Position numbers and translations under genes: made by a program. The notes under the pieces were generated by a model that searched no databases, was not told the origin of the DNA, and saw only the letters and a list, made by a program, of their open reading frames with translations. Shown here piece by piece: positions 1 through 42,317 of a stretch of 42,317 nt of DNA. The DNA is from a virus. How positions within the stretch are numbered: position 1 is the first letter of the stretch; each line of letters begins with the position of its first letter. The stretch lies in IMG/VR virus record IMGVR_UViG_3300045597_000107, positions 1-42,317 of that record. One strand, given 5' to 3'.

Positions 1-127
1 AGTAGCATTCCGTATCCCAAGCGACCAGGCTCAGGGCTCTCAACGACTCGTCCTCGTCCATCGGCTTTCAATGGATAAACGAATCGGGCAAGACGATGCT
101 CTACGTCCTCGTCGGGAACGTGAGAAT
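1..127. repeat. Terminal direct repeat: 1-127 is identical to 42191-42317 (circular genome / assembly overlap)
   Basis: Read base by base: agtagcattccgtatcccaagcgacc...gggaacgtgagaat occurs at both window ends. The window ends exactly where the copy ends. Confidence 0.95.
5..18 (+). repeat. Crossover site R1 (GCATTCCGTATCCC); same copy as 42195-42208
   Basis: 14-nt sequence shared with 159-172, 285-298, 486-499, 675-688 (+) and 1199-1212 (-). It follows the tail-fibre stop codon tag (3-5 = 42193-42195) directly. Confidence 0.9.
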
Positions 128-158
128 CTGGGGTGTAGAGGGAACGTTTCCCGCGTGA
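19..158 (+). other. Silent tail-fibre C-terminal cassette C1 (46 codons, no own start)
   Basis: Read in the site phase cat-tcc-gta-tcc-Caa, it gives QATRLRALNDSSSSIGFQWINESGKTMLYVLVGNVRIWGVEGTFPA. The stop tga at 156-158 lies 0 nt before site R2. Confidence 0.8.
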
Positions 159-172
159 GCATTCCGTATCCC
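159..172 (+). repeat. Crossover site R2 (GCATTCCGTATCCC)
   Basis: Exact 14-nt copy, or 15 nt with the preceding A. Confidence 0.9.
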
Positions 173-285
173 AGGTGAGCTACAACGGCAGAATCTCGTT
201 CTCTTGGACCAGCCCCGGAAGCGACCAGACGGCGGGGCTGTGGGCGACCGTGGACGAGAGCGAGTTCCTTCTGATGGCTCTTTAG
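173..285 (+). other. Silent tail-fibre C-terminal cassette C2 (37 codons)
   Basis: In phase with the site: QVSYNGRISFSWTSPGSDQTAGLWATVDESEFLLMAL. The stop tag at 283-285 overlaps the first base of R3. Confidence 0.8.
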
Positions 286-298
286 CATTCCGTATCCC
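285..298 (+). repeat. Crossover site R3 (GCATTCCGTATCCC)
   Basis: Exact 14-nt copy. Confidence 0.9.
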
Positions 299-483
299 AA
301 AGGGTTCCGCTGTCGGGCATCGACGCGAGGGTCTACCTCCCGGGCAACACCGGCATCGAGATGGGCATAGGCTTCACGGCGCGCGACGGCTCGAAGTGCG
401 CCGTCTACTTCTGGGGAGCGGGCTCAGACAAGCACGTGAGCATCTGGGACGTCACTCATTCCAAGGACCTGTGGTCCATCTAG
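299..483 (+). other. Silent tail-fibre C-terminal cassette C3 (61 codons)
   Basis: In phase: QRVPLSGIDARVYLPGNTGIEMGIGFTARDGSKCAVYFWGAGSDKHVSIWDVTHSKDLWSI. The stop tag at 481-483 lies 2 nt before R4. Confidence 0.8.
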
Positions 484-485
484 CA

Positions 486-499
486 GCATTCCGTATCCC
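486..499 (+). repeat. Crossover site R4 (GCATTCCGTATCCC)
   Basis: Exact 14-nt copy. Confidence 0.9.
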
Positions 500-675
500 G
501 CGTCCTCCCGCCCGCGAGGCTCCCCAAGGCGTACCTCGACGCTCTGTCGGGCGACTACCTGATGGTCAGGTTCTTCGTCAGCGACACCGACGAGTACCGG
601 CTGGAGATAGAGCCAAGCGGCATCTCCTACATACACTATCTGAACAACGTGGGAGCTCTCATCTGGAAGAAGTAG
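500..675 (+). other. Silent tail-fibre C-terminal cassette C4 (58 codons), paralogous to the expressed tip
   Basis: In phase: RVLPPARLPKAYLDALSGDYLMVRFFVSDTDEYRLEIEPSGISYIHYLNNVGALIWKK, stop tag at 673-675. It has the same length as the expressed tip and aligns colinearly with it (...YQLQI...HYVNN...IWSK). Confidence 0.85.
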
Positions 676-688
676 CATTCCGTATCCC
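675..688 (+). repeat. Crossover site R5 (GCATTCCGTATCCC)
   Basis: Exact 14-nt copy. Its first base is the last base of the C4 stop codon. Confidence 0.9.
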
Positions 689-954
689 GGGACACGCTCG
701 TCGACGCCAACGGTCTCAGAGTCTGGCGCTTCGGACCCGTCGTGACCATGAGCCTGTCAGGCTATGCGGTGGCGACATCAGACAGGACGAGCATATACAC
801 CCTCCCCGCCGGATGGCGCCCGATGGCGATTGTCTCAGAGACCACCGGGGACTCCGACGGGAAGCGGCGGCTCATGGTGTCCGCGAACGGGATAATCAAC
901 GTCGAGGGCGGCACCGCCTACTACGGGGGCCTAACCTTCGTGGCGACTGGCTAG
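689..954 (+). other. Silent tail-fibre C-terminal cassette C5 (88 codons)
   Basis: In phase: RDTLVDANGLRVWRFGPVVTMSLSGYAVATSDRTSIYTLPAGWRPMAIVSETTGDSDGKRRLMVSANGIINVEGGTAYYGGLTFVATG, stop tag at 952-954. It contains track ORF 742..954. Confidence 0.8.
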
Positions 955-1198
955 GCGAGCGCGAGCGACACCCACGCGGTCCAGGAGCCGTCGTTGGATG
1001 TGAGCGACCTCACCCAGACCCTGGACCTTGCGTCGAGCGTGTAGTTCGATATGGCCAGCTGCTCGACGTAGTCGCGGCTCGCGACCACGAGGACGACGCC
1101 CCAGACAGCCGCCGGGGCGTTCGTGGTCGTGTCGTAGAAGATGTAGCACCCGAAGCCCCTCGCGTCGTTCAGGTCGTCGACGGAGCCGTTGTCGAGCT
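951..1198 (-). other. Silent tail-fibre C-terminal cassette C6 (82 codons), the only inverted one
   Basis: The minus strand read from site R6 gives QLDNGSVDDLNDARGFGCYIFYDTTTNAPAAVWGVVLVVASRDYVEQLAISNYTLDARSRVWVRSLTSNDGSWTAWVSLALA. The stop is the complement of 951-953. This is the C-terminal tail of the spurious track ORF 951..1991. Confidence 0.8.
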
Positions 1199-1212
1199 GG
1201 GATACGGAATGC
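1199..1212 (-). repeat. Crossover site R6 (GCATTCCGTATCCC on the minus strand), the only inverted copy
   Basis: Plus strand reads gggatacggaatgc. The site lies 1 nt from the recombinase stop codon (complement of 1214-1216). Confidence 0.9.
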
Positions 1213-1213
1213 C

Positions 1214-2083
1214 CTACGACGCCGTCATGGCCCCCTCGTAGGCCCTCGTGGCGCGCCTCACCACCGTGCCGAACCCCATGAGGTAGTGCCTCCTGGCGGT
1301 GTCGATGGTGGTGTGGCCCAGCGCCACGGAGATGTCCTCGATCGCGCAGCCCGCGTCCAGGGAGATGGTGGCCCACGAGTGCCTCAGCTCCGTCATGGAC
1401 ACCCACGGCAGGCCGTGGGCGCGGCAGAAGCGGCGGAACCCCGCCGCCACCCGGTGCGGGGCGAGCGCGCAGACCCTGCCCGAGCGGCGGCACCCGCGCA
1501 GCCGCCTGAGCCTCGCCAGGGCGAAGCGCGGCAGGCGCAGCGTGCGCCTCGACAGCCTCGTCTTGCACGGCAGCTCGCGCTCCTCGCCGCCGACCCAGTG
1601 CAGCCCCCGGCGCACGCGGACGTCGCCCGTGCGCCAGTCGACGTCCTCCCACCTCACGCCGCACGCCTCGCAGCGCCTGAGGCCCAGGGCCGCCCCCAGC
1701 AGGACCGTCGCCTCCCACGGCTGGCCGGCGATGCCCCTGAGCGTCTCGCGCTCCTGGGAGGCGGTGAGCGTGCGCCTCTCGGGGCTCTCGCGGCGGGGCA
1801 GCTCCACCCCCTGCGTGGGGTCCCACAGCCTCAGCTGGTGTCGGCGCAGGGTCCAGCGCACGACCTGCCGGAGCGTCTTGTACGCCTTCTCCGCCGCCCC
1901 GGGGGTGGGTATGGAGTCCACCCACGACTGGACGCCCTCGCAGGTCACCTCGGCCACGTCGACCTCCCCCCAGCGCGGCAGGACGTGGCACCTGAGGGCC
2001 GAGCGGTAGCCCTCTATCGTCTCGGGGCTGAGCCTCCTCTCCTTGTCGGCCATGTACTCTTCGGCGGCCTCATTCAGGTTCAT
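1214..2083 (-). CDS. Tyrosine site-specific recombinase, candidate shufflon (Rci-like) recombinase
   Basis: Track ORF 1214..2095. Tyrosine-recombinase boxes: GLRRCEACGVRWEDVD (Arg), ELRHSWATISL, ALGHTTIDTARRHYL (His..Tyr). I prefer the ATG at 2083 (MNLNEAAEEY) because a GGAG lies 6 nt upstream; the track start at 2095 is a TTG. Confidence 0.85.
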   Translation of the reverse strand: MNLNEAAEEYMADKERRLSPETIEGYRSALRCHVLPRWGEVDVAEVTCEGVQSWVDSIPTPGAAEKAYKTLRQVVRWTLRRHQLRLWDPTQGVELPRRESPERRTLTASQERETLRGIAGQPWEATVLLGAALGLRRCEACGVRWEDVDWRTGDVRVRRGLHWVGGEERELPCKTRLSRRTLRLPRFALARLRRLRGCRRSGRVCALAPHRVAAGFRRFCRAHGLPWVSMTELRHSWATISLDAGCAIEDISVALGHTTIDTARRHYLMGFGTVVRRATRAYEGAMTAS

Positions 2084-2632: not shown

Positions 2633-2869
2633 ATGAAGACGGAACTCAGGCAGTGGGCCACGGCGGCCCTGGTGCGCGCGGGCAAGACGGCGGCGCAGGC
2701 CGCGGTCGCGGCGTTCGGCGCGGCCACGGTCATGGAAGATGTGGACTGGCGGGTGGTGGCGTCCACGGCCGCGCTCGCGGCAATCCTGTCTGTGCTCATG
2801 AGCGTCGCGGGCGTGCCCGAGGTGTCGGAGGGCGCGAGCGTGGTCAAGATCAGGAAGGAGGGGGAGTGA
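2633..2869 (+). CDS. Holin (small, two hydrophobic segments)
   Basis: 78 aa with hydrophobic segments AAQAAVAAFGAA and VVASTAALAAILSVLMSVAGV and a charged C-terminus. Position is immediately before the endolysin. Confidence 0.65.
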   Translation: MKTELRQWATAALVRAGKTAAQAAVAAFGAATVMEDVDWRVVASTAALAAILSVLMSVAGVPEVSEGASVVKIRKEGE

Positions 2870-2987: not shown

Positions 2988-3875
2988 ATGGCGGACACCG
3001 CATCGGACGTCCTGTCCGTCGCGCGCGCTGAGATGGGCTACAGCCGCTACGCCGACCCGGAGGCCGGCACCAAGTACGGCAGGTGGTACGCCGAGGGGCA
3101 CGGAAGCTACTACGGGAGCACCGGCGTCCCCTACTGCGCCATGTTCGTGAGCTGGGTCTTCGCGCAGGCCGGGGCCACGTGCGACGGCGTCCCGGAGGCC
3201 TACTGCCCGTACATAGTCCAGAAGGCCCGCGCGGCGGGCTCGCTGCTCTCGGACAAGACGAGGGCGCAGGCGGGCGACGTCGTCCTCTTCGACTGGGGCT
3301 CGGACGGCGTCGCGGACCACGTGGGCCTCGTGGAGCTGAACCTCGGCTCCTGCGTCCAGACGGTCGAGGGAAACGTGAGCGGCACCGTGGCCCGGCGCAC
3401 CCGCGCGTGGTCCGACGTCTGCGCGGTCGTGCGACCGTCCTACGGCGGCTCCGCCGGCGCGGGCACGGCGTCGGGCGGCTCCACCTCGTCCTCGCCCACG
3501 GGGGCAAAGCTGCTCATGGACTGCGACGCGGGAGTCAGGACGTTCGCCGAGTGGGCCACGCAGCTCGGCCTGTCCGGCTCCGACGCGGACGGCTACGTCA
3601 GCTACCAGTACGCGCCCAACAAGGCGTACATGCGCAGCGTCTCGGCGGCCATCTACAACTGGGTCAAGGGGACGAGCGGGAGCCCCACGGTCAAGGCGAT
3701 ACAGACCCGCATCGGTTCGGCTAACGTGGACGGCGTCTGGGGCGCGGCGGACAGCCGCCAGCTGCACACGTACATGAACAGCACGTGGGGCTACCACATG
3801 GTCGTGGACGACGACTTCGGCCCGATAACCGCCTACAACGTCCAGGACTCGCTCAACAAGGGGCTGTGGCGCTAG
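2988..3875 (+). CDS. Endolysin: N-terminal CHAP amidase/peptidase plus C-terminal peptidoglycan-binding-like repeats
   Basis: CHAP Cys/His context: VPYCAMFVSWVF and ADHVGLVE. C-terminal repeats resemble PG_binding_1 (VKAIQTRIGSANVDGVWG; VVDDDFGPITAYNVQ). Confidence 0.85.
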   Translation: MADTASDVLSVARAEMGYSRYADPEAGTKYGRWYAEGHGSYYGSTGVPYCAMFVSWVFAQAGATCDGVPEAYCPYIVQKARAAGSLLSDKTRAQAGDVVLFDWGSDGVADHVGLVELNLGSCVQTVEGNVSGTVARRTRAWSDVCAVVRPSYGGSAGAGTASGGSTSSSPTGAKLLMDCDAGVRTFAEWATQLGLSGSDADGYVSYQYAPNKAYMRSVSAAIYNWVKGTSGSPTVKAIQTRIGSANVDGVWGAADSRQLHTYMNSTWGYHMVVDDDFGPITAYNVQDSLNKGLWR

Positions 3876-4132: not shown

Positions 4133-5290
4133 CTATCCCAGATTGTCCCAACTGTCCGCGAACGGGTGCTCCTTGTAGTGCACGCTGGCCTCCCTCACGA
4201 AGTCATCCACGATGGGCCTGTCGTAGTGCTGCCCCGTGACGCCTCCCACCGAGTGCCCCATCATCCGCTCGATCGTGGAGGGCCCTATCCTGAGCGTCCA
4301 GCGCGCTATCGTCTCCCAGGACGCGCGCAGCGTCATGGGCGGCAGGTCCTTGAGTCCCACTGACTGCGCGGCCCTTGACACGGCCCTGCGATACCTCATC
4401 TGCTCTATCTGGCTGCCCGTCTCGTCACCGGAGAGCCACGTGTAGCCGTCTCTCACCCTCGTCTCGGCAATGCCGCCGAGCCTCATGGCCATGGGTCCGC
4501 ACACGACCACGGGGCGCCTGCTGAACCTGTTCTTGAGCGTCTCAGAGTACCCGTCGCCCCGGTTGTCCACCTGCCTCTTGATGGGGGCCACGAACACGGG
4601 CACTCCGCACTCGGAGACCCCGAAGCGACACTCCTGCGCCCAGACGCCCAGGGACTCTCCCACGCGACACGACCCGAAGGCAGACAGCAGAAAGGCCGGC
4701 TCTGACGGTAGGCCTCTCATCGCCTCCCACATGCGCCTCAGCTCGTCGGGCTTGTAGCAGTCAGTCGAACGGATGGTCTTCTTGCTATCTGGCATCTCAT
4801 AGGTAGCTCTCATTGGGTTCACCCGCATCTCCACCTCGTTGAACTCGGCGATTCTGTAGATTCTCTTCATCACGGTCCTGCACTGCTTGGCAGTCGACCC
4901 AGACTTCGTGAGCAGCCAGTCCTGCACGTCAGCGGCGCGAACGTCCGTGAGCGGGACGGCTCCCCATGCGGGCTCGACGTGGTTCTTCCACGTGCTGTCG
5001 AACTGCTTGCGGGCGTTGTCGCTCATCCTGCCGCCCGCCTGGCGCCTGTCGGCCCACGGGACCCACCACAGATCGTGCGCCTGGGACACGGTGGGGGTGG
5101 GCCCGTCCCTGGAGTGCTCGATGCGCCGGAGCGTCAGGACCTCGTCCGCCTCCCTGCGGGTGCCCCTCACGGTCTCGGTGCGCCTGCGATAGCCTCTGCC
5201 GTCGTGGAGGTCCGCCCAGTACCTGATGCGCCTCTTGCCGGGACCGGCGGAATCGTTCGACCCCCACGTGGACCTCTGCCGTCGTGGCAT
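4133..5290 (-). CDS. int: Tyrosine integrase (phage integrase family)
   Basis: 385 aa. N-terminal SAM-like region, then C-terminal catalytic boxes TLRASWETIARW and MMGHSVGGVTGQHYDRP. It has the classic position next to the lysogeny module. Confidence 0.9.
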   Translation of the reverse strand: MPRRQRSTWGSNDSAGPGKRRIRYWADLHDGRGYRRRTETVRGTRREADEVLTLRRIEHSRDGPTPTVSQAHDLWWVPWADRRQAGGRMSDNARKQFDSTWKNHVEPAWGAVPLTDVRAADVQDWLLTKSGSTAKQCRTVMKRIYRIAEFNEVEMRVNPMRATYEMPDSKKTIRSTDCYKPDELRRMWEAMRGLPSEPAFLLSAFGSCRVGESLGVWAQECRFGVSECGVPVFVAPIKRQVDNRGDGYSETLKNRFSRRPVVVCGPMAMRLGGIAETRVRDGYTWLSGDETGSQIEQMRYRRAVSRAAQSVGLKDLPPMTLRASWETIARWTLRIGPSTIERMMGHSVGGVTGQHYDRPIVDDFVREASVHYKEHPFADSWDNLG

Positions 5291-6309: not shown

Positions 6310-6954
6310 CTAGATTTCGATATCGAACGGAACCGTGTACCAGACTACGCGACCGATTATCGTAATCGTTTCCGTATCTGGGACGTTATTGTCAAATACC
6401 CTCATGTGGTAGGTAGGATCCAAAGAGTCCGGTTCCAGTCCTATCCCGTTTGCAAGCATTCTGATTCGCTTCACAGTTGCGTCGTAACCGTTTACGCATA
6501 CCGCATAGACCTGACCGCTCACGACGGGTTCCTTTAGGTCTGGGTCAACGAGCACAAGAGACTTATCCGGTATGACCCGGCTCATGCTCTCACCTTCGAT
6601 TTCAAGAAAGAATGCCTTCGGATGCCTCTTTATGAGGGTGGTAGGGCAGGGGAAGCCATAGTCCCCTTCCTCCATCTCAAGAGGAGTCCCCGCCGCTATC
6701 TTTCCATAGACCTTCGTCTCAACGCTCGAGTAGTCTTGGTCGTCCCTCATGGGGATGTACGGGAGAAAGAGCATGTGAACACTAACGTCAAGGTAGCTTG
6801 CTATCTGCTTGAGCTTTTTCCAGTCAGGAATGGTGTCCTTGGACTCCCATGCCCCGACAGTTCCCTTTGATATTCCGAGGTCTTCTGCCATGTCTCGTTG
6901 AGAAATCCCCTTCTCCGCTCGAAGTCTAGCTATGTTGTCCCCTAAGACGCTCAT
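6310..6954 (-). CDS. CI/LexA-like repressor (XRE HTH plus S24 peptidase domain)
   Basis: N-terminal HTH: NIARLRAEKGISQRDMAEDLGISKGTVGAWE. C-terminal S24 motifs: EIEGESMSRVI (Ser) and DATVKRIR (Lys). Confidence 0.9.
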   Translation of the reverse strand: MSVLGDNIARLRAEKGISQRDMAEDLGISKGTVGAWESKDTIPDWKKLKQIASYLDVSVHMLFLPYIPMRDDQDYSSVETKVYGKIAAGTPLEMEEGDYGFPCPTTLIKRHPKAFFLEIEGESMSRVIPDKSLVLVDPDLKEPVVSGQVYAVCVNGYDATVKRIRMLANGIGLEPDSLDPTYHMRVFDNNVPDTETITIIGRVVWYTVPFDIEI

Positions 6955-10427: not shown

Positions 10428-11590
10428 GCAGGTACTCGCTCACCTGCGGGACGGTCGAGACGCCGCTCAAGGTGGCAATCTACGGTCATGAGGGCATCGG
10501 CAAGACGACCCTGGCGGCGAAGTTCCCTAATACCCTGTTCATCGACATCGAGAACGGCTCGAAGCAGCTGCCCGTGGCGCGCATGCCGCGTCCGACGAGC
10601 CTGACGATGCTCATGGATGAGATATTCGAGATCAAGAGGAACGCAAAGGACTACGGCTGCTCCACGCTCGTCATCGACACCATGGACGCGGCCGAACAGC
10701 TCTGCATCGCGTCAGTGCTCGCCGAGAAGGGCATCTCCGGCATGGAGGAGCTCGACTACGGCAAGGCCTACACCTTCGTGAACGAGAAGTTCGGCCGCAT
10801 GCTCGACGCCCTTTCCGAGGTGGTCGAGAGCGGCACCAACGTAGTTCTCCTCGGTCATACGACTTTGTCCAAGTTCGAGCGACCGGACGAGACGAGCGCA
10901 TACGACCGGTGGTCGCTCAAGCTCATCGACTCGAAGAAGGCCTCAAACGCCGCACTCGTGAAGGCGTGGGCGGACATGGTCTTCTTCGCCGACTACAAGA
11001 TCACGGTCATCAAGGACGCCAAGACCAAGAAGGCCAAGGGCACGGGCGGTGAGAGGGTGCTGAGGACCGAGCACTCCGCCACATGGGATGCCAAGAACCG
11101 CTTCGGACTGCCGGAGACCATGCCACTGAACGACGCCACGGCCGAGACCATCGCCGGGCTCATGACCGACCGCGTAGCGCAGTGGGCCAAGCAGGCACCC
11201 GTGAGCGCCCCTGAGCCTTCGAGGGCACCAGCACCCGCTCCCGCACCAGCGACGCCGCCCAAGCCCACGGCGAGCGTCTCAGAGGCCCGCAGCAGGGCCG
11301 ACGAGACGGTCGACAGACTCGCGGCACAGGTCGAGCAGCTCAAGATGGACGCCCCCGCCGGCAAGCCCCCCGCGAGGCCCGACTACCCCGAGCGCATGGG
11401 CGCCCTGGCCGACCTCATGGAGCGAGACGGGGTCACGGACGCCGAGTTGAGAAAGGCGGTTGCCGAGACGGGCAACTTTCCCGAGAATACTCCGGCCACG
11501 CAGTACGAGCAGGGGTTCGTTGACTACCTCGTGGCCGGCTGGGCCAAGATCCTCGACCGCGTGAAGGTCAACCGGACGGTGCCGTTCTAG
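10424..11590 (+). CDS. Sak4-like RecA-fold ATPase (AAA_24 family) with Pro/Ala-rich C-terminal extension
   Basis: Walker A: VAIYGHEGIGKTTLAAKFP. Walker B: STLVIDTMD. It has the typical position upstream of DUF669 and a helicase. Confidence 0.8.
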   Translation: MSRYSLTCGTVETPLKVAIYGHEGIGKTTLAAKFPNTLFIDIENGSKQLPVARMPRPTSLTMLMDEIFEIKRNAKDYGCSTLVIDTMDAAEQLCIASVLAEKGISGMEELDYGKAYTFVNEKFGRMLDALSEVVESGTNVVLLGHTTLSKFERPDETSAYDRWSLKLIDSKKASNAALVKAWADMVFFADYKITVIKDAKTKKAKGTGGERVLRTEHSATWDAKNRFGLPETMPLNDATAETIAGLMTDRVAQWAKQAPVSAPEPSRAPAPAPAPATPPKPTASVSEARSRADETVDRLAAQVEQLKMDAPAGKPPARPDYPERMGALADLMERDGVTDAELRKAVAETGNFPENTPATQYEQGFVDYLVAGWAKILDRVKVNRTVPF

Positions 11591-12093: not shown

Positions 12094-14705
12094 TGGCGCT
12101 CGAGCTGCGCCCGTATCAGCAGGAGGCCGTCGAGGCCGTCTTCTCGGAGTGGGGTGCGGGCAGGTCCCGCACCCTGCTCGTCATGGCCACGGGCGTGGGC
12201 AAGACCGTCGTCTTCACCAGCGTGGCCGAGAGGGTGGCGACAGAAGGCGGAAGGGTGCTCGTCCTCGCGCACAGGGGAGAGCTTCTCGACCAGGCGGCGG
12301 ACAAGATACGGCGCGCCACGGGGCTCGAGTGCGCGGTCGAGAAGGCCGAGCAGACCTCGCTTGGGACGTGGAACCGCGTGACCGTGGGAAGCGTGCAGAC
12401 CCTGACGCGGGAGAGCAGGCTCGAGAGCTTCGACGCCGACCGCTTCGACGCCATAGTGGTCGACGAGGCCCACCACGGCGCGTCCGAGTCGTACGTGCGC
12501 ATCCTGGAGCACTTCACGGGCGCCCGCGTGCTGGGCGTGACCGCCACGCCCGACCGAGCCGACAGGAGAGACCTCGGCAAGGTGTTCGACTCCGTTGCAT
12601 ACGAGTACGGCATGGCCAAGGCCGTCCACGACGGTTGGCTCGTGCCCATACAGGCGCAGACCGTGCCCCTCAAGGTCGACATCTCCGGCGTGTCGACCCA
12701 GTCGGGCGACTACGCGGCAGGCGAGCTGGGGGACGCCCTGGACCCCTACCTCGACGCAATAGCTGACGAGATGGCCAACGTCTGCGCGGACAGGCGCACG
12801 GTCGTGTTCCTGCCGCTCGTGAGGACCGCCAAGGCCTTCGCCGAGCGCCTGCGCGAGCGCGGCATGACGGCCTGCGAGGTGGACGGCCAGAGCGAGGACC
12901 GAGACGAGGTGCTCGCCGACTTCGACGCGGGCAGGTACCAGGTCATCTGCAACTCCATGCTGCTCACGGAGGGCTGGGACAGCCCGGCGGTGGACTGCAT
13001 CGTCGTGCTCAGGCCCACCAAGTCAAGGAGCCTCTATTGCCTCGACGAGAAGACGGAGGTCCTCACGCGAGACGGGTGGAAAAGAGACGTTGAGGTCGGA
13101 GAATACGTTCTCGCGTTCGACATCGCTTCCGGCGAGACGAGGTTTGTGCCTGCCCTTGAAAAGGTTCGTCGTCCTCTCGATCAAGACGAGTTCTTCTGCT
13201 CCATTAAGGGACAGTCCTCTGACATAAGGGTTACCAATCACCACCGAATGGTTTACGACAACAAAAGGCGTCTCGGCTGGAAGGTCAAAGAGGCTCAGGA
13301 TCTTGCTGACATGAGGGATGGAGCTTACATCCCCGTGTGCGGCAACGGGAAGTTTGCGGGAATCCCGTTAAGCGATTCAGAACTCACCTTTATCGGATGG
13401 GTCATGACAGACGGGGGCATCAACAAGAAGAACGGTCAAATAACCATAACCCAGGGCGAGCAGCAGACAGATTACTGCGAAGAGATAGAGCGTTGCATCA
13501 GGGAATGCGGATTCAAGTTCGGGAGGTCCGTATCAAAGCGTACGGATATCCATTGGAATGCTCATGGAGATGTCGTCCGATGGACCATCTCTAGGGGAGC
13601 GCCGCGCGGCCGCGACAAGGATAAGACTGGTTGGGGGCGTCTCGAACCTTGGATCTCGAAAGATCTGAGCCCCAATCTCTTCGACATGACAGAGCGCCAG
13701 TTCGCTGTGATGCTCGAGGCAATTTATCACGGTGACGGAAACAAGCACTTCAAGACAAGCTATCACATCGGGAAAGGCAATAGGGCATTCATCGAGCGTC
13801 TTCAGGCCATGGCCGTGCAGCGCGGGTATCGAGCGAGTATCAGCGTCGAAAAAACTAACGAGGTCAGGCATTGCGACCTCTGGATGATTCATATCAAGAA
13901 GCAAAGATTTGTCAAGGTCGGTTCTACATCTGGCAAACATGCCAAGTGGATCAAAGAACCGCATACGAACGAGAGCTGCTGGTGCGTTCAGAACGAGCTC
14001 GGAACGCTCATCACACGGCGCAACGGCAAAGTGGCTGTTCTAGGAAATTGTCAAATGATCGGTCGTGGGACCCGCCTGTCCCCCGAGACCGGCAAGGACC
14101 ACCTGCTCCTGCTCGACTTCCTGTGGATGACCGGGCGCCACGAGCTGTGCCGCCCCGCCGCCCTGTTCGCCAAGCGCGACGAGGTCGCCGCCCGCATGAC
14201 CGAGATCTCGCAGGAGGCGGCGGGCCCCGTCGACCTCATGGAGGCGGAGGAGCAGGCCGAGACCGACGTGCAGGTGCAGCGCGAGGAGTCGCTCGCAGCC
14301 GAGCTGGAGCGCATGCGGCACAGGAAGGCGAAGCTGGTCGACCCGCTTCAGTTCGAGCTGTCCATCTGCGACCGCGACCTCCAGGACTACGAGCCGACCT
14401 TCGCCTTCGAGCTCGCCGACCCGACGGATAAGCAGAGGGCGGCGCTGGAGAAGTGGGGCGTGAACCCCGAGGGCATGGACGCGGGCAAGGCCTCGCTCAT
14501 GCTCGACCGGCTGTCCAAGAGAAAGGAGCTGGGCATGGCCACGCCCAAGCAGGTGCGCATGCTCGAGCGCAAGGGGTTCAGGCACGCGGGCACATGGTCG
14601 TTCGAGGACGCCACCTCGATGATGAGCCGACTGGCGCACAACCGCTGGATGGTCCCGCGCGACGTGGATCCCGCCACCTACGAGCCAGGCAAGGTGGTCG
14701 CATGA
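12093..14705 (+). CDS. SF2 DEAD/DEAH-box helicase interrupted by an intein
   Basis: GTG at 12093 overlaps the upstream tag by 1 nt. Motif I: LVMATGVGKT. Motif II: VVDEAHH. Motif VI (QMIGRGTR) appears only after the 337-codon insert. The track ORF 11796..14705 over-extends upstream. Confidence 0.85.
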   Translation: MALELRPYQQEAVEAVFSEWGAGRSRTLLVMATGVGKTVVFTSVAERVATEGGRVLVLAHRGELLDQAADKIRRATGLECAVEKAEQTSLGTWNRVTVGSVQTLTRESRLESFDADRFDAIVVDEAHHGASESYVRILEHFTGARVLGVTATPDRADRRDLGKVFDSVAYEYGMAKAVHDGWLVPIQAQTVPLKVDISGVSTQSGDYAAGELGDALDPYLDAIADEMANVCADRRTVVFLPLVRTAKAFAERLRERGMTACEVDGQSEDRDEVLADFDAGRYQVICNSMLLTEGWDSPAVDCIVVLRPTKSRSLYCLDEKTEVLTRDGWKRDVEVGEYVLAFDIASGETRFVPALEKVRRPLDQDEFFCSIKGQSSDIRVTNHHRMVYDNKRRLGWKVKEAQDLADMRDGAYIPVCGNGKFAGIPLSDSELTFIGWVMTDGGINKKNGQITITQGEQQTDYCEEIERCIRECGFKFGRSVSKRTDIHWNAHGDVVRWTISRGAPRGRDKDKTGWGRLEPWISKDLSPNLFDMTERQFAVMLEAIYHGDGNKHFKTSYHIGKGNRAFIERLQAMAVQRGYRASISVEKTNEVRHCDLWMIHIKKQRFVKVGSTSGKHAKWIKEPHTNESCWCVQNELGTLITRRNGKVAVLGNCQMIGRGTRLSPETGKDHLLLLDFLWMTGRHELCRPAALFAKRDEVAARMTEISQEAAGPVDLMEAEEQAETDVQVQREESLAAELERMRHRKAKLVDPLQFELSICDRDLQDYEPTFAFELADPTDKQRAALEKWGVNPEGMDAGKASLMLDRLSKRKELGMATPKQVRMLERKGFRHAGTWSFEDATSMMSRLAHNRWMVPRDVDPATYEPGKVVA
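13038..14048 (+). mobile_element. Intein with LAGLIDADG homing-endonuclease domain (337 codons) inside the helicase
   Basis: Starts with Cys (CLDEKTEVLTRDGW) and has block B VTNHH. LAGLIDADG motifs: LTFIGWVMTDGGI and AVMLEAIYHGDGN. Ends ...VAVLGN followed by Cys+1 (tgt 14049-14051). GC is visibly lower than the flanks. Confidence 0.8.
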
Positions 14706-41049: not shown

Positions 41050-42195
41050 ATGAGCGAGAACAACAACCAGATGCTCTACGACTCCGACAAGCAGATCTAC
41101 GCGGTCAAGGTGAAGGGCAAGACCTACGGCATCGCCGGAGCCGACGGCGCGGCCGAGAAGGCCCGCGTCGAGAGTGAGGCGGCACGAAAGACCTCCGAGA
41201 CGGCCCGCTCCAGCGCCGAGGGCACGCGCGACCAGAACGAGCAGGAGCGCCGCTCGAACGAGGCGATGCGCACGAGCTCAGAGGGTATGCGCAAAGCTAA
41301 TGAGGACACACGTGTCATGGAGGAGCAGGACCGCGTCTCGTCAGAGTCTGCACGAAAGGCCGCCGAGACCAACAGGGCATCGGCTGAGTCATCCCGCCAG
41401 ATCGCAGAGACGGCGCGCGTCGATTCCGAGGACTCTCGCCAGGCGGCGGAGTCCTCCAGGGCGTCCGCTGAGTCAGCTCGCGTCGCCGCTGACCAGCAGA
41501 GAGACTTCGACCAGGCCAAGAACAACAGCGACCAGGCTCTGAACAACGCGGCGGCGCAGGGCCTGCAGGTGGTCAAGCTCACCGAGGGCCAGTACGACCC
41601 GACCTCCGGCGAGCCCACCGTGGAGGGCCAGGTCGGCAAGCTCTACTTCGTGCCCACCAGCAACGGAGTCGGAGACGACCTCTACACCGAGTGGATGCTC
41701 ATCGACTCTGAGTGGGAGAAGGTCGGCTCCACCACGGCTAGCATCGACCCCATAGTCACCGACCAGATCGACGCCGTTTCGCTCGACCAGTCGCCGGTTG
41801 GCGGGCAGGTCCTCAACCTCACGGGGCTCTCCTACCTCTGGAACCGCATCAAGAGCGCCTTCGCCTACAAGTCCCACACGCACCCCGCCTCCGACGTCAC
41901 CTCCGGCACCCTCCCGCTCGCGCGCGGCGGCACCGGCTCCGGCGACGCGACCGCCGCGAGGGCGGCGCTCGGCGCGGCGTCGAGCCAGGAGGTGCAGGCG
42001 CTCCGGGATTCCGTATCCCCGAACCTTCCAATAGGCGACATCAACTACGCCAGGGCCACCATGTGGGTTGACGGCACGATCGTGCTGTTCTTCTCTCTGT
42101 CATCCACCGAGAACTATCAGCTGCAGATCAAGTCCAACAAGTTGGTGTGGGCGCACTACGTCAACAACTCGCCGACCGTCATCTGGAGCAAGTAG
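41050..42195 (+). CDS. Tail fibre / receptor-binding protein with exchangeable C-terminal tip
   Basis: 381 aa with 16 consecutive xxxExxR heptads (aa 40-151). The crossover site lies in frame at 42006-42019. The expressed 58-aa tip is PNLPIGDINYARATMWVDGTIVLFFSLSSTENYQLQIKSNKLVWAHYVNNSPTVIWSK. Confidence 0.85.
   Translation: MSENNNQMLYDSDKQIYAVKVKGKTYGIAGADGAAEKARVESEAARKTSETARSSAEGTRDQNEQERRSNEAMRTSSEGMRKANEDTRVMEEQDRVSSESARKAAETNRASAESSRQIAETARVDSEDSRQAAESSRASAESARVAADQQRDFDQAKNNSDQALNNAAAQGLQVVKLTEGQYDPTSGEPTVEGQVGKLYFVPTSNGVGDDLYTEWMLIDSEWEKVGSTTASIDPIVTDQIDAVSLDQSPVGGQVLNLTGLSYLWNRIKSAFAYKSHTHPASDVTSGTLPLARGGTGSGDATAARAALGAASSQEVQALRDSVSPNLPIGDINYARATMWVDGTIVLFFSLSSTENYQLQIKSNKLVWAHYVNNSPTVIWSK
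42006..42019 (+). repeat. Crossover site R0 inside the expressed tail-fibre gene (GGATTCCGTATCCC)
   Basis: The 12-nt core ATTCCGTATCCC (42008-42019) is identical to all six downstream sites. It is read gat-tcc-gta-tcc-C (D-S-V-S), the same phase as every cassette. Confidence 0.9.
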
Positions 42196-42317
42196 CATTC
42201 CGTATCCCAAGCGACCAGGCTCAGGGCTCTCAACGACTCGTCCTCGTCCATCGGCTTTCAATGGATAAACGAATCGGGCAAGACGATGCTCTACGTCCTC
42301 GTCGGGAACGTGAGAAT
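42191..42317. repeat. Second copy of the terminal overlap (= 1-127), containing site R1 at 42195-42208 and the first 109 nt of cassette C1
   Basis: Exact identity to 1-127. Confidence 0.95.

Follow-up and report, generated by a model that had tools for sequence, protein, structure and literature searches.

The window, that is, the whole stretch of 42,317 nucleotides of viral DNA that was analysed, carries a 127-bp terminal overlap that stems from circular assembly, leaving a unit of 42,190 bp. Because of this overlap, the sites at positions 7 and 42197 represent one and the same site (R1), and the region 5..688 runs straight on from the tail-protein gene at the end of the window. Across this junction lie the constant part of a tail-protein gene, seven short cassettes (C0 to C6), seven copies of a 12-bp site (R0 to R6) and a tyrosine recombinase gene. 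Along the circle, the features are arranged as follows:

41050..42007, plus strand: constant N-terminal part (319 aa) of a receptor-binding/baseplate (BppU-like) tail protein, as an ORF
42008..42019, plus strand: R0, crossover site inside the expressed gene, exact ATTCCGTATCCC
42020..42195, plus strand: C0, the cassette expressed in the window isomer, with a tip of 62 aa including the site-encoded DSVS
42191..42317, no strand: duplicate of bases 1-127, an assembly overlap due to circular assembly and not biology
7..18 (same as 42197-42208), plus strand: R1, direct site, exact ATTCCGTATCCC
19..158, plus strand: C1, silent and direct, 50 aa, stop at 156-158
161..172, plus strand: R2, direct site, exact ATTCCGTATCCC
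173..285, plus strand: C2, silent and direct, 41 aa, joined to the constant part in protein P0001 of contig Ga0455833_0378
287..298, plus strand: R3, direct site, exact ATTCCGTATCCC
299..483, plus strand: C3, silent and direct, 65 aa, open frame from R3
488..499, plus strand: R4, direct site, exact ATTCCGTATCCC, its last base being the end of the Logan contig L038
500..675, plus strand: C4, silent and direct, 62 aa; a C4-like cassette is expressed in the relative L003/L016 (recombinase 96%)
677..688, plus strand: R5, direct site at the left edge of the pivot block, exact ATTCCGTATCCC
689..954, plus strand: C5, silent and direct, 92 aa, left head of the pivot, open frame from R5
951..1198, minus strand: C6, silent and inverted, 86 aa, right head of the pivot, open frame from R6
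1199..1210, minus strand: R6, the sole inverted site; the 3' end of the recombinase gene forms its flank on the outer (left-arm) side
1214..2083, minus strand: Rin-type tyrosine recombinase, 289 aa from ATG, with Pfam Phage_integrase and a SAM-like N domain
4133..5290, minus strand: second tyrosine-recombinase-like ORF, 385 aa, with weak family matches, near a CI-type repressor at 6310-6954 (minus strand)

The full expressed ORF (41050..42195, plus strand) encodes 381 aa and sits downstream of the tape measure and other tail genes. Pfam gave no match on the expressed tail protein itself; the domain PF10651 (BppU_N) is present in many of its homologues, one of which is titled 'BppU family phage baseplate upper protein [Eggerthellaceae]'. 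The constant N-terminus of this receptor-binding protein (RBP) meets exchangeable, mutually dissimilar C-terminal cassettes in frame, which is a feature of Rin shufflons. Cassette sizes range from 114 to 265 bp and the sequences are unique; only C0 and C4 are visibly related to each other, with 31% identity. C5 (plus strand) and C6 (minus strand) are convergent, and their stop codons overlap in CTAG at 951-954.

Seven distinct exact copies of the 12-mer ATTCCGTATCCC are present, six on the plus strand and one on the minus strand. When up to two mismatches are allowed, eight matches are obtained where 1.66 are expected, a count that was reached in none of 100 shuffles. All sites are read in a common frame, xAT TCC GTA TCC, corresponding to D/H-S-V-S. 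Every core leads into an open in-frame cassette of 41 to 92 aa, and the stop is located 1 to 4 nt ahead of the next core. The recombinase is predicted to exchange DNA within this 12-bp core, which doubles as coding sequence, providing S-V-S at the joint.

In 42 sites of the family, TTCCGTATCCC never changes. On its left, four bases are partly conserved (R-G-S-A), on its right the adjoining base is A or G, and the rest is variable. The conserved block is thereby a compact one of about 15 nt, RGSA-TTCCGTATCCC-R. R0 together with its flank has the sequence GGGA-TTCCGTA-TCCC, in which the two halves of a perfect 4-bp dyad enclose an asymmetric centre of 7 bp, and the left arm of the silent sites is AGCA or similar. 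A preliminary description of this DNA had the sites conserved on one side only. Their asymmetry is retained here, but not a long one-sided arm, as the block is compact and both of its flanks vary.

The recombinase comprises 293 aa if translation starts at the upstream TTG at 2095, and its stop codon lies 3 nt from R6. Its build is XerC/D-like, lacking an arm-binding N-domain as well as a C-terminal extension, and the protein ends approximately 25 residues past the region of the catalytic Tyr. The closest solved structure is the XerC-like 4a8e, and the match to IntI4 is marginal (E 7e-4). With the recombinase of Bifidobacterium phage PMBT6, which is not the named Rin of Bb423phi1, it shares 33% identity at 91% coverage (E 2e-37); the PMBT6 gene adjoins an array of like architecture with TTCCGTAACC sites. 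No Rci/IncI likeness of the recombinase was detected among 72,556 plasmids at E<=1e-5. Scans of metagenome and genome contigs with the recombinase returned distant integrases only, with 19-36% identity, and revealed neither a host nor further isomers. In a protein look-up, neither the exact recombinase product (289 or 293 aa) nor a 45-aa product of C6 had an entry, likely due to a truncated gene or to a GTG start recorded as M.

Regarding the arrangement of the sites, the preliminary description stated that the silent sites R1-R5 (5..688) are direct to R0 and that R6 alone is inverted, and the positions and strands listed above agree with this. It also considered this arrangement an anomaly. 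That label is not retained, as a one-headed cassette with the constant part on one side and the convergent C5/C6 block on the other has to be direct. Each site can be described by two sides. The C side consists of the core and a cassette start, while the L side is either the end of the constant part, or the stop codon of a cassette followed by GC, or the stop of the recombinase gene. In these terms, each of C0-C4 is a one-headed block, bounded by a C side and, at its opposite end, by an L side. C5/C6 is a two-headed convergent block, here named the pivot, bounded by two C sides. One L side each is supplied by the constant part and by the recombinase gene. Since each junction pairs an L side with a C side, the legal order is constant part, direct blocks, pivot, inverted blocks and recombinase. 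The pivot is last in the window, and therefore all five single blocks are direct. The layout with spare tips in the same direction is simply among the normal states of a system that has been described before.

The right-pointing sites are all located left of the pivot and the left-pointing sites all right of it, so that every allowed inversion spans the pivot. The orientation of the pivot therefore shows the parity (odd or even) of the inversion count. This polarity/pivot rule and the parity property were worked out here and are not found in PMC6109161 or PMC8778435. The possible states were enumerated breadth-first, the only moves allowed being inversions between oppositely oriented sites. 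All 1,440 formal states (5! x 6 x 2) are reached by inversions alone, in at most eight steps. Of these states, 240 (1/6), including the window, have the pivot in last place. From the window, C6 is expressed after one inversion (R0 x R6) and each other cassette after two, in agreement with the earlier proposal that an R0 x R6 inversion expresses C6 and leaves the rest one further inversion away.

Rearrangement of this array was traced in assembled contigs and proteins. A protein search led to P0001 (360 aa), which consists of exactly the 319-aa constant part, followed by D and then by C2; three short members of the P0001 cluster were dropped as unrelated junk. P0001 is encoded on contig Ga0455833_0378 (42,599 bp) of the JGI sample 3300044212. 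Upstream of R0, the contig matches the window over 10,958 bp at 100% identity, and for 5.4 kb past the recombinase the identity is 99.96%. Its array starts at the constant part, reads C2>C3>C4>[C5><C6]<C1<C4<C3<C0 and ends at the recombinase-side site. The array segments are all 100% identical to the window, and the joints all lie exactly at the 12-bp core. The new junctions are const/C2, the reciprocal C1end/C6, C4end/C1 and C0end/C3. Four cassettes, namely C0, C1, C3 and C4, are now inverted behind the pivot, as specified by the polarity rule. This second assembly, with its const/C2 joint, the reciprocal junction and the four inverted cassettes, supports the multi-step shufflon put forward in the preliminary description.

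As C3-C4 is present twice, Ga0455833_0378 represents a walk through a mixed population. The doubled C3-C4 is due to an assembler walk (or a real duplication) and does not belong to one clean molecule. According to the enumeration, the contig is an overlay of a two-step isomer (state A: const/C2 C3 C4 [C5><C6] <C1 <C0/rin) and a four-step isomer (state B: const/C2 [C5><C6] <C1 <C4 <C3 <C0/rin). Both ends of the contig are located at the recombinase-side site and differ, with 'rin/core/A...' at one and 'GGC/core/C0' at the other, which indicates an isomer mixture.

Two Logan contigs of the same phage terminate with the final base of a core, L031 with that of R0 and L038, which carries const/C0 C1 C2 C3, with that of R4. 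Such contig ends at cores are branch points of the assembly graph. The window order was found again in L022 and in the stretch covered by L038, so that one isomer at a time dominates the populations. When the sub-ORFs of C5, C3, C4 and C0 were looked up, only the two JGI contigs and one Logan contig came back. Two of the seven isoforms are thus far on record, and the five other predicted full-length isoforms were absent from a collection of 15 billion proteins. Within this phage no flipped pivot was observed; the window, the two-step state and the four-step state all contain the pivot unflipped.

Related arrays were surveyed by pattern scans of IMG/VR and of two GenBank phages, which yielded 24 arrays anchored on a homologous recombinase. 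A run of right-pointing sites followed by a run of left-pointing sites accounts for 22 of them. The exceptions are L019 and L020, the latter containing two pivots split by a 27-bp double-L spacer. In L019, the extra '<' site was rejected as a chance 8-mer without CCC. The recombinase-side site is always left-pointing in the survey arrays, and R0 is always right-pointing. The layouts span a wide range. L066 is ><<<<<<, the textbook layout in which the silent cassettes are all inverted, L061 is >><<<<<<<<<, ctl617 (OY725605) is >><<<<<, L058 is >>><<<<<, PMBT6 (MK932884) and L016 are both >>><, and the window is >>>>>><. Layouts that are 'all direct' and 'all inverted' accordingly represent one machine in different states.

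The pivot itself is flipped between relatives. L016, whose recombinase is 96% identical, contains [C6-like > IS < C5-like], compared with [C5><C6] in the window, and L012 contains [Cb><Ca], compared with [Ca><Cb] in L010. The cassette expressed in L016 is a homologue of C4. Related phages had been proposed earlier as a place to look for permuted cassette orders; this comparison was run, and permuted as well as flipped arrays were seen. An excess of arrays with the pivot in last position was also considered and discarded, as a hand tally of about 4/15 is near the uniform expectation.

The closest described system is the Rin shufflon of the Bifidobacterium prophages Bb423phi1, Bl157phi1 and Bl30698phi1 (Mavrich et al. 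2018, PMC6109161). Its tyrosine invertase has no arm-binding domain, and the constant part, Rc, is accompanied by 'tandemly oriented' Rv cassettes, with an asymmetric 11-bp rix site, TTCCCTAACCC, ahead of each Rv cassette (PMC6109161). In the published model, inversions at internal sites change the tip and inversions at downstream sites 'prime' cassettes (PMC6109161). Clade-1 prophages of Eggerthella lenta likewise contain a Rin shufflon, with the repeat ttccgtat (PMC8778435). The core ATTCCGTATCCC has 9 of 11 positions in common with rix and includes the E. lenta repeat. Further likenesses to the window are a short armless recombinase at one end of the array and the constant RBP part at the other, small tandem C-terminal cassettes with a short asymmetric repeat before each, a separate integrase elsewhere in the genome, and the multi-step priming inversions of the model. 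The differences are the number of cassettes (five in Bb423phi1, seven here), the BppU-like nature of the RBP in the window and the host phage.

The R64/IncI shufflon (Rci, sfx, pilV) resembles the locus in that multiple inversions by a tyrosine recombinase swap the C-terminal segments of an adhesin. Asymmetry of the sites is a further likeness, the centre being of an asymmetric 7-bp type and the right side the better conserved one, and direct and inverted sites normally occur together. In sfx, the centre is asymmetric, and of the two arms the right one is conserved and the left one degenerate (PMC11852207). In contrast to the window, sfx joins a conserved right arm of 12 bp to a core of 7 bp (19 in total), whereas the block found here is about 15 nt long and unrelated in sequence. 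Rci contains an extra C-terminal domain, which the window enzyme of 289 aa lacks; this domain is thought to enforce the inversion-only behaviour of Rci (PMC11852207). In addition, the R64 segments are mostly two-headed (A/A', B/B', C/C') and six of the seven window cassettes one-headed, and the product is a pilin rather than a phage tail protein.

Phage-encoded inversion also switches the C-termini of tail fibres in Min (p15B), Gin (Mu) and Cin (P1), of which Min is a multi-segment system too. Min, Gin and Cin are serine invertases, in which inversion is controlled via Fis and an enhancer. Unlike these serine-invertase switches (Gin/Cin/Min/Pin), the sole recombinase at the window locus is of the tyrosine type. 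Integrons (IntI/attC) share with the window a tyrosine recombinase beside unidirectional tandem promoter-less cassettes, whose expression is set by position. The cassettes of integrons are whole genes, whereas those of the window are in-frame fragments without starts. No attC-type imperfect palindromes are present at the window sites, which are 12-bp cores.

Taken together, the locus is very probably a Rin-type multiple-inversion shufflon that swaps the tip of the RBP, with inversion-only shuffling as the main mode. The earlier multi-step reading is further strengthened by the reachability of all 1,440 states, by the permuted and flipped relatives and by the published priming inversions (PMC6109161). 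We infer that the recombinase is the catalyst, that it acts only, or almost only, on inverted pairs, and that the exchanged tips change the host range.

Direct-repeat recombination as a significant mode was the second reading of the preliminary description. Blocks would be excised as circles and reinserted in an integron-like manner, or would be lost or duplicated. The observed states can be described in these terms, as [C0 C1] crosses the pivot between the window and state A and [C3 C4] does so between A and B, and excision plus reintegration gives the same junctions. The unflipped pivot in all three observed states also fits this reading, and so does a recombinase without an Rci-type C-terminal domain. 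Regarding gains and losses, C3-C4 is doubled in Ga0455833_0378, and the cassette number differs between relatives (seven compared with four at 96% recombinase identity), with L008 lacking the cassette Cd of L010. The mixed-isomer assembler walk, however, yields the C3-C4 duplication and the L008/L010 difference as well. L008 starts 176 bp from R0, and its missing Cd was therefore rejected as proof of a deletion, the mixed-isomer walk being an equally good explanation.

Several observations speak against a major contribution of such events. All seven cassettes are kept in both full assemblies, and a non-replicating circle would need an unlikely intermolecular reinsertion. The pivot flips between close relatives require inversion. 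Read-level work on Rin found variants arising by inversions at rix sites only (PMC6109161). No attC-like structure, no IntI-type enzyme and no evidence of circular cassettes was found in support of a direct-repeat mode. Positive support for the earlier proposal did not emerge, and the retention of all seven cassettes argues against it. Direct-repeat recombination is thus considered improbable as a significant mode. If true, the action of an armless Rin recombinase on direct sites would represent a hybrid of a shufflon and an integron-like cassette system.

Very improbable is the proposal that the array is a static relic of past duplications that no longer rearranges. The recurrence of the window order in L022 and partly in L038, together with the small number of isoforms on record, could be read in this way. 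Yet a different arrangement with joints exactly at the core is found in a genome that is essentially identical elsewhere, and contig ends fall precisely on cores. The seven cores also do not differ from one another, all cassettes have open frames, and the gene of the recombinase is intact. The preliminary description had associated such a fossil with one fixed order and orientation in all genomes, and both order and orientation were found to vary. Equally hard to sustain is an assembly artefact, in which the assembler would have collapsed or threaded the 12-bp repeats into the direct (or an alternative) layout: Ga0455833_0378, with C3-C4 twice, is certainly no single-molecule path and the window is a k=127-style circular contig, but the cassettes are unique, the 12-bp repeat is far shorter than the assembly k-mers, so that every junction must be spanned by real k-mers, and L022 and L038 gave the window order independently.

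As a Rin-type inversion system, the locus adds a clean case with seven cassettes to a little-studied shufflon family, whose name, 'Rin shufflon', occurs in just two papers of the library that was searched. Mavrich et al. (2018) raised the question of how deletion between direct sites is avoided (PMC6109161), and the parity property bears directly on deletion avoidance by an armless tyrosine recombinase. For annotators, the polarity/pivot rule provides a simple reading of such arrays and flags mis-assemblies. This is of practical use, as shufflon loci break short-read assemblies and yield chimeric contigs.

The phage that carries the array is temperate, encoding a CI/S24 repressor and the second tyrosine-recombinase-like ORF. 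The latter (385 aa) is probably the phage integrase, distinct from the invertase. A megablast search of 12 kb against GenBank phages gave no nucleotide match. The window has a G+C content of 65%, and the RBP homologues are named from Collinsella and Eggerthellaceae; on these grounds of composition and homology, a host in the Coriobacteriia is likely. The Rin-type family is abundant in gut phages of Actinobacteria. In total, 398 homologues of the recombinase were found, and some of the arrays contain at least 11 cassettes.

The first 127 bases of the window (1-127) are identical to 42191-42317, a direct overlap at the termini; the window is an assembly closed as a circle (k=127 style). R1 and the beginning of C1 are each present twice in it because of this terminal overlap.

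In the same-phage contig L021 (Ga0455833_0378), C3-C4 occurs in two copies, one direct and one inverted, at 11097-11474 and 12163-12540, and the contig exceeds the genome unit by about 390 bp. Most likely, the two copies reflect an assembler walk through two isomers, while a genuine duplication via recombination between isomers is possible. A cassette is absent or present in a pair of related contigs. The array of L008, a contig starting 176 bp before R0, consists of the constant part of the tail protein, the pivot [Ca><Cb], the inverted cassette <Cc and the recombinase. L010 has the same order with a single direct cassette, Cd>, between constant part and pivot, its boundaries lying exactly at sites. 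Behind this difference lies either an assembly walk or the deletion or insertion of Cd between direct sites.

L003 (IMGVR_UViG_3300044569_000072) is a close relative of the window, with recombinases 96% identical, and carries an IS256/mutator-type transposase (PF00872; 429-438 aa) between the two convergent pivot cassettes, both of which are left uninterrupted by the insertion. The transposase genes are located as follows:

L003, 1318..2634, minus strand
L044, 1253-2542

Two convergent pivots are found in some relatives, namely L020 (1086-1128) and L068 (736-765), separated by a tiny spacer of 27 or 14 bp with two divergent sites flanking. These relatives are nearer to the R64 layout, and their arrangement permits inversions spanning less than the whole array.

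In three relatives the arrays are very large, with cassette numbers from 9 up to 11 or more; some of these arrays are cut by the end of the contig. Nearly all of these cassettes are inverted relative to the expressed gene.

L059, 3513-6061, large array
L062, 71-1949, large array
L061, 9095-11467, large array

In the Bifidobacterium phage PMBT6 (MK932884; >>><), the sole inverted site (4832-4841) carries one mismatch (TTCCGTAATC), adjoins the recombinase annotated as 'integrase' and opens a cassette of 26 aa only. This array may be decaying or locked.

The tail protein of the window contains four diverged tandem repeats of 84 nt (28 aa) each at 41155-41453, in its Ala/Glu/Arg/Ser-rich N-terminal portion. 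Nucleotide 498 of the tail protein gene is a break point shared by the Logan contigs L030 and L033.

Lysis and lysogeny genes are encoded in the window beyond the recombinase, the holin call being made in corresponding contigs and mapped to the window:

2633..2869, plus strand, r1t-type holin
2988..3875, plus strand, CHAP-domain endolysin, a little past the recombinase
4133..5290, minus strand, integrase-like ORF of 385 aa, lysogeny context
6310..6954, minus strand, CI/Peptidase_S24 repressor, lysogeny context
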